Part shown: in pieces, positions 20,250 to 26,123 of the stretch
Position numbering within the stretch: position 1 is the first letter of the stretch
Layout: the number at the start of each line of letters is the position of its first letter
NCBI GenBank assembly: GCA_964016885.1
Contig: OZ024743.1
Coordinates: forward strand, 55,862,001-55,926,000
Length of the DNA: 64,000 bases
Direction: 5' to 3'
Source: Eledone cirrhosa
Lineage: Eukaryota
Notes under the pieces: model-generated
What the model saw: the letters and a program-made list of their open reading frames with translations, nothing else
What the model was told of the DNA's origin: nothing
Databases searched by the model: none
Position numbers and translations under genes: made by a program

Positions 20250-20835
20250 GGTGGTGGACGGGCAATAATCGGTAGAGCGTCGGACAACATGCTTTGCGGC
20301 ATATAGTTTCGTCCCTCACGTCCTTACGGGGTCGATGAAATAAACCCTAGTAAGTACCAGTAACGAGGTTTACGGCATTGAGTAACAGTCCTTTACGTTG
20401 TGAGTTCAAATCCCCACACCGAGGGGTCAACTTTGCCTTTCATCCTTACGGGGTCGATAAAATAAAGTACCAGTAACGAACTGGGTACATTTAATTGACT
20501 TTCTTCTCCCCCTATTTTGATGACCTTGTGCCTAGATCAGAAACCATTATTAGTTTATCTCATTACGGGGTCGATAAAATAAAGTACCAGTAATGCACTG
20601 GGTAATTGCTGGTAGAAACAATTATTAGTTTATCTCATTCAAAGGGCGGTGCATTGGCAGTATCGGTAGAGGGTCGGACATGCTTTCCAGCATAGTTACG
20701 TCCCCTTACGATCTGAGTTCAAATCCTGCCGAGGTTAACTTTGCCTTTCATCCTTACCGGGTCGATAAAATAAAGTACCAGTAAGGTATTGGGTAATTGC
20801 TGGCCTTGTGCCAAATGTAGAAACAATTATTAGTT
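20250..20835 (+). mobile_element. Tandem cluster of tRNA-derived SINE copies
   Basis: Repeated ggtagagcgtcggac...gagttcaaatcc...ggggtcgataaaataaagtaccagt. Confidence 0.8.
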
Positions 20836-21896
20836 TATCTCATTATTTTCATCAATTCGTTCATCTATTGATTGTTTCTTTCTTTCTTTTCTCTTCGTCT
20901 GTCTATGCTTTTCATTTTCTTTCTTTCTGTTTTATCATTTCTTTCTTTGTTACCTTTCTTTCAGTCATTCAATATTTTTTGAATTTGCCTCATTGTTTCT
21001 TTTTCTTCTGTCCACCATTCATTCTTTCTTTCTTAGTATATTTTCTTAAAGCCAACCCAGCTGCCCACTGAGCATTACGTAGATTCGCTTATAGCTACAC
21101 CACTTCTGTTTATCAGGCCTTAACACTCTCTCCGTAAAACTCTCGTATCAGGAACTTATACAAGAGTTTGGTATTTAAATGCCTACAATTATATAAATGC
21201 CACCTAAAATATTTATGAAACTTAACCAAGGTTCCTTCCAATAATTTAAAATCCTGGCTGGAGACCCAGGGGTAGTACCCGAGTAAGATGGTTGGATGTG
21301 GATAATATTTATGAACTCGGCTGGTTACGTTTGGGGCTCCTGCCGGATCAATTGCTTGTGGCAGGACCCGCCGGAAGGCGTGCTTGAATACTTAACCTAT
21401 GAGATGCAACCTCGTAAAGAAGCAGCTAAACATGCATACGCATGAGCTATAACAACATTCATATGAGACACAGCTAGAATCCCTACCATTATAACAACTG
21501 AGAAACCTCCTATAAGATGAAACTTAGTAGATATGTAATACAGCAAAAATGTGTAGCAAGCAAAGATTAAAGTCTTTCTTGTCGGTTTATTTGTGTGTCT
21601 ATCATGTGATTAGTCATATAATTGTTTCTACCTTTGGCACAAGGCCAGCAATTATCCCAGTGTATTACTGGTACTTTATTTTATCGACCCCGTAAGGATG
21701 AAAGGCAAAGTTTACCTCGACGGGATTTGAACTCAGACCATAAAGGGCCCTAATTCTTTGCTGCAAAGCATGGTGTCCGACCCTCTACCGATACTGATAA
21801 TCCACCCCCCATGTGATTAGTCATGTAATATGTACTAATATAATATGCATTCAGGTATGTATGTAGGTAGATAGGTAAGTATATATATATATACTA

Positions 21897-22320: not shown

Positions 22321-22450
22321 TTTGCTCTGATTATTTAATTTATTAATTCTTCATTGAGCCACATCGTGAAAAGTTGCCAAAACACATATATACCTGTGAC
22401 TTTGTTTAATTGGTGTATGTGTAAATATTTATATATCTATATATATATAT

Positions 22451-22481
<31 letters not shown>

Positions 22482-22493
22482 TAATATAATATA

Positions 22494-22541
<48 letters not shown>

Positions 22542-22663
22542 GACAAACATAGAATATTCGAAAATATTCTGTATGTTTAGAATAAACATTTTGAAGACCC
22601 AATCGCTATAGAATAGAATACGTCACGTATTACAATTTGAGATTCTCGATAAAAGCAAGGGAA

Positions 22664-22706
22664 GTAACCTACGCGTTTCATTCTTATTAGAAATCATCAG
22701 GATTAC
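22664..22706 (-). ncRNA. Type I hammerhead ribozyme, left-arm copy (also at 22976, 23288, 23600, 23912, 24224)
   Basis: Reverse complement of gtaatc-CTGATGA-tttctaataagaat-GAAA-cgcg-TA-ggttac. Confidence 0.88.
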
Positions 22707-24600
22707 ATATCCAATGCTTTTATCGAGAACGACACAGCTAGAGACTTATAGAATACTTAGCTGTGTACAGGAACTGGTTTGAAAGAGCGGTAGCCGGTCC
22801 GGCAGAAATTAGAATTTGGATTTAATGCTCTGAAATAGCGATATATATGTGAAGACAAACATAGAATATTCGAAAATATTCTGTATGTTTATAATAAACA
22901 TTTTGAAGACCCAATCGCTATAGAATAGAATACGTCACGTATTACAATTTGAGATTCTCGATAAAAGCAAGGGAAGTAACCTACGCGTTTCATTCTTATT
23001 AGAAATCATCAGGATTACATATCCAATGCTTTTATCGAGAACGACACAGCTAGAGACTTATAGAATACTTAGCTGTGTACAGGAACTGGTTTGAAAGAGC
23101 GGTAGCCGGTCCGGCAGAAATTAGAATTTGGATTTAATGCTCTGAAATAGCGATATATATGTGAAGACAAACATAGAATATTCGAAAATATTCTGTATGT
23201 TTATAATAAACATTTTGAAGACCCAATCGCTATAGAATAGAATACGTCACGTATTACAATTTGAGATTCTCGATAAAAGCAAGGGAAGTAACCTACGCGT
23301 TTCATTCTTATTAGAAATCATCAGGATTACATATCCAATGCTTTTATCGAGAACGACACAGCTAGAGACTTATAGAATACTTAGCTGTGTACAGGAACTG
23401 GTTTGAAAGAGCGGTAGCCGGTCCGGCAGAAATTAGAATTTGGATTTAATGCTCTGAAATAGCGATATATATGTGAAGACAAACATAGAATATTCGAAAA
23501 TATTCTGTATGTTTATAATAAACATTTTGAAGACCCAATCGCTATAGAATAGAATACGTCACGTATTACAATTTGAGATTCTCGATAAAAGCAAGGGAAG
23601 TAACCTACGCGTTTCATTCTTATTAGAAATCATCAGGATTACATATCCAATGCTTTTATCGAGAACGACACAGCTAGAGACTTATAGAATACTTAGCTGT
23701 GTACAGGAACTGGTTTGAAAGAGCGGTAGCCGGTCCGGCAGAAATTAGAATTTGGATTTAATGCTCTGAAATAGCGATATATATGTGAAGACAAACATAG
23801 AATATTCGAAAATATTCTGTATGTTTATAATAAACATTTTGAAGACCCAATCGCTATAGAATAGAATACGTCACGTATTACAATTTGAGATTCTCGATAA
23901 AAGCAAGGGAAGTAACCTACGCGTTTCATTCTTATTAGAAATCATCAGGATTACATATCCAATGCTTTTATCGAGAACGACACAGCTAGAGACTTATAGA
24001 ATACTTAGCTGTGTACAGGAACTGGTTTGAAAGAGCGGTAGCCGGTCCGGCAGAAATTAGAATTTGGATTTAATGCTCTGAAATAGCGATATATATGTGA
24101 AGACAAACATAGAATATTCGAAAATATTCTGTATGTTTATAATAAACATTTTGAAGACCCAATCGCTATAGAATAGAATACGTCACGTATTACAATTTGA
24201 GATTCTCGATAAAAGCAAGGGAAGTAACCTACGCGTTTCATTCTTATTAGAAATCATCAGGATTACATATCCAATGCTTTTATCGAGAACGACACAGCTA
24301 GAGACTTATAGAATACTTAGCTGTGTACAGGAACTGGTTTGAAAGAGCGGTAGCCGGTCCGGCAGAAATTAGAATTTGGATTTAATGCTCTGAAATAGCG
24401 ATATATATGTGAAGACAAACATAGAATATTCGAAAATATTCTGTATGTTTGTCTTCACATATATATCGCTATTTCAGAGCATTAAATCCAAATTCTAATT
24501 TCTGCCGGACCGGCTACCGCTCTTTCAAACCAGTTCCTGTACACAGCTAAGTATTCTATAAGTCTCTAGCTGTGTCGTTCTCGATAAAAGCATTGGATAT

Positions 24601-24643
24601 GTAATCCTGATGATTTCTAATAAGAATGAAACGCGTAGGTTAC
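24601..24643 (+). ncRNA. Type I hammerhead ribozyme, right-arm copy (also at 24913, 25225, 25537, 25849)
   Basis: Stem I gtaatc/ggttac, CUGAUGA core, stem II ttct-aata-agaa, GAAA, palindromic stem III ACGCGU, GUA cleavage triplet. Stem I is extended by ttctcgataaaagca/tgcttttatcgagaa. Confidence 0.88.
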
Positions 24644-26048
24644 TTCCCTTGCTTTTATCGAGAATCTCAAATTGTAATACGTGACGTATTCTATTCTATA
24701 GCGATTGGGTCTTCAAAATGTTTATTATAAACATACAGAATATTTTCGAATATTCTATGTTTGTCTTCACATATATATCGCTATTTCAGAGCATTAAATC
24801 CAAATTCTAATTTCTGCCGGACCGGCTACCGCTCTTTCAAACCAGTTCCTGTACACAGCTAAGTATTCTATAAGTCTCTAGCTGTGTCGTTCTCGATAAA
24901 AGCATTGGATATGTAATCCTGATGATTTCTAATAAGAATGAAACGCGTAGGTTACTTCCCTTGCTTTTATCGAGAATCTCAAATTGTAATACGTGACGTA
25001 TTCTATTCTATAGCGATTGGGTCTTCAAAATGTTTATTATAAACATACAGAATATTTTCGAATATTCTATGTTTGTCTTCACATATATATCGCTATTTCA
25101 GAGCATTAAATCCAAATTCTAATTTCTGCCGGACCGGCTACCGCTCTTTCAAACCAGTTCCTGTACACAGCTAAGTATTCTATAAGTCTCTAGCTGTGTC
25201 GTTCTCGATAAAAGCATTGGATATGTAATCCTGATGATTTCTAATAAGAATGAAACGCGTAGGTTACTTCCCTTGCTTTTATCGAGAATCTCAAATTGTA
25301 ATACGTGACGTATTCTATTCTATAGCGATTGGGTCTTCAAAATGTTTATTATAAACATACAGAATATTTTCGAATATTCTATGTTTGTCTTCACATATAT
25401 ATCGCTATTTCAGAGCATTAAATCCAAATTCTAATTTCTGCCGGACCGGCTACCGCTCTTTCAAACCAGTTCCTGTACACAGCTAAGTATTCTATAAGTC
25501 TCTAGCTGTGTCGTTCTCGATAAAAGCATTGGATATGTAATCCTGATGATTTCTAATAAGAATGAAACGCGTAGGTTACTTCCCTTGCTTTTATCGAGAA
25601 TCTCAAATTGTAATACGTGACGTATTCTATTCTATAGCGATTGGGTCTTCAAAATGTTTATTATAAACATACAGAATATTTTCGAATATTCTATGTTTGT
25701 CTTCACATATATATCGCTATTTCAGAGCATTAAATCTAAATTCTAATTTCTGCCGGACCGGCTACCGCTCTTTCAAACCAGTTCCTGTACACAGCTAAGT
25801 ATTCTATAAGTCTCTAGCTGTGTCGTTCTCGATAAAAGCATTGGATATGTAATCCTGATGATTTCTAATAAGAATGAAACGCGTAGGTTACTTCCCTTGC
25901 TTTTATCGAGAATCTCAAATTGTAATACGTGACGTATTCTATTCTATAGCGATTGGGTCTTCAAAATGTTTATTATAAACATACAGAATATTTTCGAATA
26001 TTCTATGTTTGTCTTCACATATATATCGCTATTTCAGAGCATTAAATC

Positions 26049-26123
<75 letters not shown>

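Follow-up and report, generated by a model that had tools for sequence, protein, structure and literature searches.

In a microsatellite-rich animal genome of 3.0 Gb, we analysed a window of 64,000 nucleotides that holds an array of 6.13 copies of a 312-nt unit followed by 5.16 copies in reverse orientation, with (AT)n microsatellites on both sides (22425..22538 and 26052..26107). The left arm (22538..24450, + strand, 1913 nt) keeps the 312-nt period up to 24450, and the right arm (24444..26053, - strand, 1610 nt) keeps its reverse complement from 24444 to 26053, the two having a 7-nt microhomology in common at the inner junction (24444..24450). Every unit contains a hairpin with an 8-bp inner stem, a CGAA loop, a 2-nt bulge and a 6-bp outer stem; seven copies lie on the + strand (starting at 22545, 22857, 23169, 23481, 23793, 24105 and 24417), the last of which (24417..24450) occupies the inversion centre, and five reverse copies follow. 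The initial annotation had described this hairpin in every unit, its bulge kept at the inversion, and the passage from the seventh hairpin into the complement of the preceding sequence, all of which is borne out here; the CGAA loop is kept there as well. Private changes were found at 22580 in the left arm and at 25737 in the right arm, the mirror position of the latter (23130) being without change. The flanks of the array show no mirror symmetry, the exact 50-nt junction sequence is unique in the genome, a target-site duplication is unreadable within the (AT)n runs, and poly(A) is absent from both ends. Dispersed SINE-like repeat copies, which we take to resemble octopus SINEs, flank the array (20250-20850, 21620-21810 and others). 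Rfam microRNA matches at the array centre were rejected, as they only reflect the palindrome.

On the evidence of its sequence, the unit is a 312-nt non-LTR retrozyme with a type I hammerhead ribozyme, inserted in (AT)n. Eleven hammerhead copies, each with core and three stems, were placed in the array: six on the - strand of the left arm (22675 to 24235, in steps of 312) and five on the + strand of the right arm, the first at 24601..24643 (motif read in the sequence, with the core CUGAUGA at 24607, GAAA-CGCG-UA and a predicted cut after 24637) and the further cores at 24919, 25231, 25543 and 25855. Each copy combines CUGAUGA, a 4-bp helix II with U-U at its base, GAAA and a one-pair helix III capped by CGCG, and stem I is lengthened by a 15-bp helix (unit positions 99-113 with 171-185; 24578..24664, + strand). 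The common variant 124T converts a G-U pair of stem I to A-U, and the Rfam match to Hammerhead_HH9 (E=0.02, 20.6 bits against a gathering score of 52) supports the assignment weakly. The unit has no coding capacity, its longest stop-free frame spanning 56 codons, and its length and GC content (~0.35) fall within the retrozyme monomer range (170-400 nt, GC <45%); in size, GC and ribozyme it fits the non-LTR retrozymes described in the available text of Cervera and de la Pena (2020; PMC7229834). That text proposes that retrozyme circles are copied into tandem cDNA by Penelope-like elements (PLEs) and treats the entry of the circles into genomes as a hypothesis; a PLE origin of retrozymes is supported in the accessible part of Li et al. 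(2026; 10.64898/2026.07.22.740005). PLEs are present in the genome studied here, as indicated by 150 scored GIY-YIG matches and by ORFs in which a reverse transcriptase (RT) precedes a C-terminal GIY-YIG domain. As an element, the unit is a newly described member of this established class.

Because the hammerhead sits on the strand opposite to the left arm, the left arm reads as top-strand (antisense) cDNA and the right arm as bottom-strand cDNA, with both cDNA 5' ends facing outward into (AT)n. The left arm begins at unit position 306 (start site B) and the right arm at unit position 270 (start site A), and the 36 nt between these sites form a 'tail' at the right end only (26018..26053, + strand). 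The unit probably acts as a reverse-transcribed RNA, which is probably circular. A monomer circle would be the simplest template, and uniform passes would be expected as well from a linear multimer whose source array was uniform. We found no excess of stops at the ribozyme cut site of the kind that would mark a ligated circle (10 arm ends compared to 11.0 expected) and no excess of errors there (1-2 per 369 passes at unit positions 124-126).

The family to which the array belongs is estimated at 430 near-identical insertions, flanked by AT-rich or (TA)n targets. We fetched 159 loci, 39 of them through a whole-unit search (39 of 485 candidates scored), 118 through an exact end pattern and two through the hairpin pattern. 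Inversion is the norm of the family: 136 of the 159 fetched loci are two-armed and 23 one-armed, and the polarity is + then - in every two-armed locus listed. The set used for the counts below comprises 128 two-armed loci, five having been dropped (one duplicate, one with an N gap, two with long inner gaps and one truncated when fetched) and the focal locus set aside together with the two loci found through the hairpin pattern. Several loci have features of their own. The longest arm, of 22.3 units, belongs to L057 (G000:C2:381021435-381028767), in which nearly all passes carry a private variant and a few variants appear in isolated passes; it may represent either a very long single run or later turnover of units. 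A tandem array of a 310-nt unit variant, older and more diverged, lies 1.9 kb from a young insertion (L056:6540-7968), and the insertions at L138/L139 and L163 were duplicated along with their flanks through later segmental duplication.

Outer ends were assigned to class A (unit positions 262-280) or class B (unit positions 296-12). Across the 128 loci they cluster at unit positions 270 (A; 104 ends) and 306 (B; 95 ends), 36 nt apart, a clustering that is partly due to selection, since in about 118-120 of the 159 loci one end was chosen by an exact A or B pattern and only the other end is a free observation. The same clustering is seen in loci found by the whole-unit search without an end pattern. 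Among the 128 unselected two-armed loci, 117 combine one A with one B end, 10 have one atypical end, one is A+A and none is B+B; facing pairs in the raw pattern lists are likewise A+B in 31 of 31 cases. The focal array, with B on the left and A on the right, is an ordinary family member. The longer arm starts at A in 45 and at B in 71 of the 117 loci. Lock-step progress of two RTs did not emerge from these data: the lengths of the two arms are correlated (rho 0.31, P=0.0006), but loci in which both arms stop at the same place (14) are not clearly more frequent than expected (9.4; P=0.08).

Both arms of a locus derive from one template. Arms of the same locus agree in 200 of 210 informative site comparisons, compared to a fraction of 0.14 for shuffled pairs (maximum 0.23 in 1000 shuffles), and passes within an arm agree at 283 of 300 multi-pass sites, the other 17 being non-uniform. 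Of the variants private to one locus, ten are fixed across both arms and 20 are confined to part of the passes, and the 118 fully covered loci contain 39 haplotypes. The ribozyme cut site is crossed twice or more in 100 of 234 arms, and the cDNA run has a mean length of ~490 nt. In many loci, unit position 248 varies more than any other site among the passes of a locus (16 deviations in 274 passes), perhaps reflecting a template base that is modified or hard to read.

The inner junctions follow no comparable rule of position. The distance between the two inner ends around the unit is flat (8 loci within 10 nt versus 8.6 expected; 35 within 34 nt versus 29.5, P=0.15). No insert is present in 101 of the 128 junctions, with a median microhomology of 2 nt, and microhomology of at least 3 nt occurs in 33 of these 101 compared to 6.7 expected; the 27 junctions with inserts include longer ones that largely match nearby unit sequence. 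The 15-bp stem served as junction site in three of the 128 loci, all among the 101 insert-free ones, versus 0.03 expected, and long pairings are favoured at junctions in general. A recurring microhomology junction was noted in four pairs of separate loci (L059/L158, L131/L189, L056/L105 and L076/L113).

The initial annotation had attributed the inversion to the hairpin, on which a nascent cDNA 3' end would have snapped back to prime the copying of itself, and had set the mapping of inversion centres in other copies as the test. As DNA, the 34-nt hairpin is stable for its length (-7.6 kcal/mol, z -6.7, none of 200 shuffles as good). Inversion centres are not enriched at it: both inner ends lie inside the hairpin in two of the 128 loci versus 2.3 expected by permutation, and 30 arm ends fall within it versus 30.2 expected from exposure. 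Genome-wide we found five hairpin-centred junctions, with ~4 expected among the estimated 430 insertions. All five are near the symmetric register, with spacers of 22-26 nt where 8-34 nt would have been allowed (P ~0.002 when the focal junction is left aside), and four of the five keep the loop, the remaining one being a loop-less TTCGAA palindrome. Since the number of hairpin-centred junctions approximates expectation while all five are near-symmetric, we conclude that the hairpin does not attract inversions and that it fixes the register in those cases in which both ends come to a halt inside it by chance. What stands of the earlier proposal is cDNA copying, in that the unit behaves as reverse-transcribed, and a role for the hairpin in the register of the junction; what falls, by the very test that the initial annotation had set, is hairpin self-priming as the cause of the inversion. 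At the focal centre the hairpin likely only helped the joining of two cDNAs.

Other elements in the same genome share this build. A protein-coding family with a C-terminal GIY-YIG domain (L221) is two-armed in the same way, with start sites 40 nt apart, and among its matches listed for the initial 70 Mb of contig 1, which comprise 69 A and 100 B ends, the facing pairs are A+B in 50 of 50 cases. Eleven fetched elements of the GIY-YIG family, ~430 nt in length (contig 1, for example L254-L264), are near-perfect palindromes with a 40-nt tail; they are centred at or beside the same GATC, and several carry variants mirrored in both arms. Such palindromes may mark a site at which RT is strongly arrested or a hotspot of fold-back, or they may be palindromic elements that propagate themselves. 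Their single centre and mirrored variants are not explained by plain random end joining and count against the explanation that we favour below. A second hammerhead family (L197:2441-2866; G000:C1:267124889-267125314), with 3225 first-look candidates, also forms two-armed insertions in (AT)n. Its sequence matches the 312-nt unit at 76% over the start region and the hairpin, in which a pair of the inner stem has changed in a compensatory manner; this comparison suggests that the hairpin is kept as an RNA structure beside the start sites. When 28 loci were examined for an autonomous partner sharing the start region of the unit, no protein-coding match appeared and only this second, non-coding family matched. 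Further short elements in (AT)n (L221:3631-3830; L210, L214 and L217) carry almost the same hammerhead core as the unit.

Taken together, the loci have outward-facing cDNA-sense 5' ends, one start of each kind, one haplotype running through all passes, and scattered inner ends with an excess of microhomology. Because of the polarity, the one-of-each ends, the shared haplotype and the finding that many arms are not contained in their partners (see below), we infer that both target ends prime cDNA on one RNA. We consider it probable that the array is a single retrozyme insertion, in which a Penelope-like RT extended both (AT)n ends on one RNA, probably circular, and the cDNAs were then joined. 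The enzyme, a Penelope-like RT with a GIY-YIG nuclease presumed to act as a pair, would bind the RNA and cut the (AT)n site, after which one DNA end would be extended from start site A and the other from start site B, 36 nt away. Both cDNAs would run on along the circle for several rounds with strand displacement, and their 3' ends would then be fused by host microhomology-mediated end joining at whatever short pairing was available, which at the focal junction would be the 7-nt pairing supplied by the outer stem of the unit's own hairpin. We arrived at this mechanism because three lines of information can be put together: in vitro results on a PLE protein (PMC11167929), the features of PLE insertions (PMC8557442), both as given in the available text, and the genomic counts reported here. 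With more reserve, we lean towards the broader proposition that programmed twin priming is the normal insertion route of PLEs, in which a dimeric RT would sit at two fixed RNA sites and each subunit would take one DNA end; on a retrozyme circle the two would run round one after the other, and a single event would then yield the tandem arrays together with the inverted arm and the tail at one end.

The alternative in which a single primed cDNA folds on the hairpin and copies itself into the whole right arm is geometrically possible at the focal locus, where the 1913-nt left arm contains the 1610-nt right arm, mirrored back to the first A site, and it is also possible at two more (L096 and L194) of eight junctions at long intrinsic stems. 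At five of these eight (L053, L056, L105, L159 and L195), however, the stem-bearing strand is too short to template the other arm. An arm copied from the first must lie within it. Of the 117 loci whose ends are both typical, 48 (compared to 31 if arm lengths were independent) have two arms that each reach beyond the other, so these 48 loci were not self-copied. Nor would self-copying lead one to expect an arm that stops precisely at site A, the starting point of 104 arm ends, and neither an enrichment at the hairpin nor an excess of small loops was seen. Pure snap-back is refuted as a general route and is a minor route at most; for the focal array we give it hardly any credence. We regard it as equally far-fetched that a plain tandem array was rearranged later or that the inversion is an assembly or library fold-back artefact. 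Hairpins and palindromes are a known source of trouble for assembly, and no junction-spanning piece was found among the listed public contigs of X1, X2, X3 and X7 or the raw reads of X21, runs that possibly come from other individuals and whose records were filtered, so that we count this result neither way. Against an artefact or later rearrangement, the flanks are not mirror images, the right end falls at start site A, and the locus follows the rule of B on the left and A on the right, with fixed polarity, as do more than 100 independent loci. The reality of the junction rests on this fit to the family-wide pattern.

A combination of the two routes, in which both ends are primed and the longer cDNA then folds back, here on the hairpin, copies part of itself and anneals through this copy to the second cDNA, deserves more weight, although we judge it rather unlikely. 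Under this scheme the hairpin would be a true self-primer at the focal locus. It predicts the same sequence there as end joining does and agrees with two arms of similar, unusual length, and it is not bound by the containment test. A cDNA ending at unit positions 26-34 folds readily (-4.4 to -7.6 kcal/mol), the retained loops and near-symmetric registers of the hairpin-centred junctions would be natural outcomes, and a sporadic variant at L036 recurs in mirror position at the register with the smallest loop. Fold-back priming is, moreover, known at breaks in yeast (PMC11724301) and has been proposed for L1 cDNA ends (PMC11702581), according to the available portions of these papers. Fold-back should nevertheless produce small loops, whereas the distances between inner ends are flat, and the loop-less TTCGAA junction is natural for pairing between two strands and not within one. 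Sporadic variants are mirrored in only 2 of 122 cases, which is a weak argument in that many arose after insertion and only some may be RT errors. Priming at both ends followed by end joining is the reading that we retain.

Priming from both ends offers a testable mechanism for the tandem and inverted structure and the 'tail' of Penelope-like insertions, which were previously unexplained. The young, near-identical retrozyme family provides a base-level record of one-of-each starts, one template, several rounds and free end joining, and it would tie the two start sites observed in vitro to the two DNA ends. It also implies that retrozyme 'satellites' can arise in full at once, and in the form of long palindromes. 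Neither the one-of-each rule nor a both-end model for PLE or retrozyme inversions was found in the literature searched, which consisted of main texts outside subscription.

The closest parallel is PLE insertion. In vitro, a PLE protein, which is predicted to be a dimer, cuts DNA with a preference for AT-rich sites, extends both strands and starts at two internal sites that bound a 30-40 nt tail (Frangieh et al., 2024; PMC11167929). PLE insertions are tandem or inverted, with a one-sided tail and (TA)n targets, and their origin is called undefined in the available text of Craig et al. (2021; PMC8557442). The retrozyme loci resemble them, as far as the accessible parts of PMC8557442 and PMC11167929 describe, in their (TA)n targets, in a tandem copy plus an inverted 5'-truncated copy, in two internal RT starts and in a 30-40 nt tail at one end, to which the 36-nt tail of the focal array corresponds. 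They differ in that the retrozyme template is a non-coding unit passed several times, and Frangieh et al. (PMC11167929) did not link the two start sites to opposite ends of one insertion or to inversion. The available text of the retrozyme studies (PMC7229834; 10.64898/2026.07.22.740005) does not describe two-armed inverted insertions, fixed start sites or both-end priming; for tandem growth, Li et al. (2026), in the portion available, discuss local amplification, whereas each array studied here looks as if made by one insertion event.

Fold-back inversion at DNA breaks (PMC11724301), like the self-annealing of L1 cDNA (PMC11702581), is similar to our case in that a 3' end pairs at a short inverted repeat and the centre is non-perfect. 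From such a route one would expect small loops, contained arms and mirrored errors; across the retrozyme family small loops are not in excess, neither arm contains the other in 48 of 117 loci, and mirrored variants number 2 of 122, the last being a weak test. L1 twin priming (Ostertag and Kazazian, 2001, as related in excerpts of PMC2246262 and PMC11702581) shares more with the retrozyme loci: RT is primed on one RNA from both sides of the break, the two cDNA ends meet and are joined in the middle, often at microhomology, and the arm polarity is equal. According to the same excerpts (PMC2246262; PMC11702581), however, twin priming is a minority outcome for L1, whereas it is the rule in the retrozyme family (136 of 159), and the second L1 primer pairs by chance close to where the first cDNA ends, whereas both retrozyme starts are fixed, 36 nt apart. 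The inner breakpoints of L1 lie 1-10 nt apart, in contrast to the unrelated inner ends of the retrozyme arms, which are spread flat around the unit, and, unlike in L1 twin priming, the retrozyme arms overlap, copying the same sequence for several rounds.
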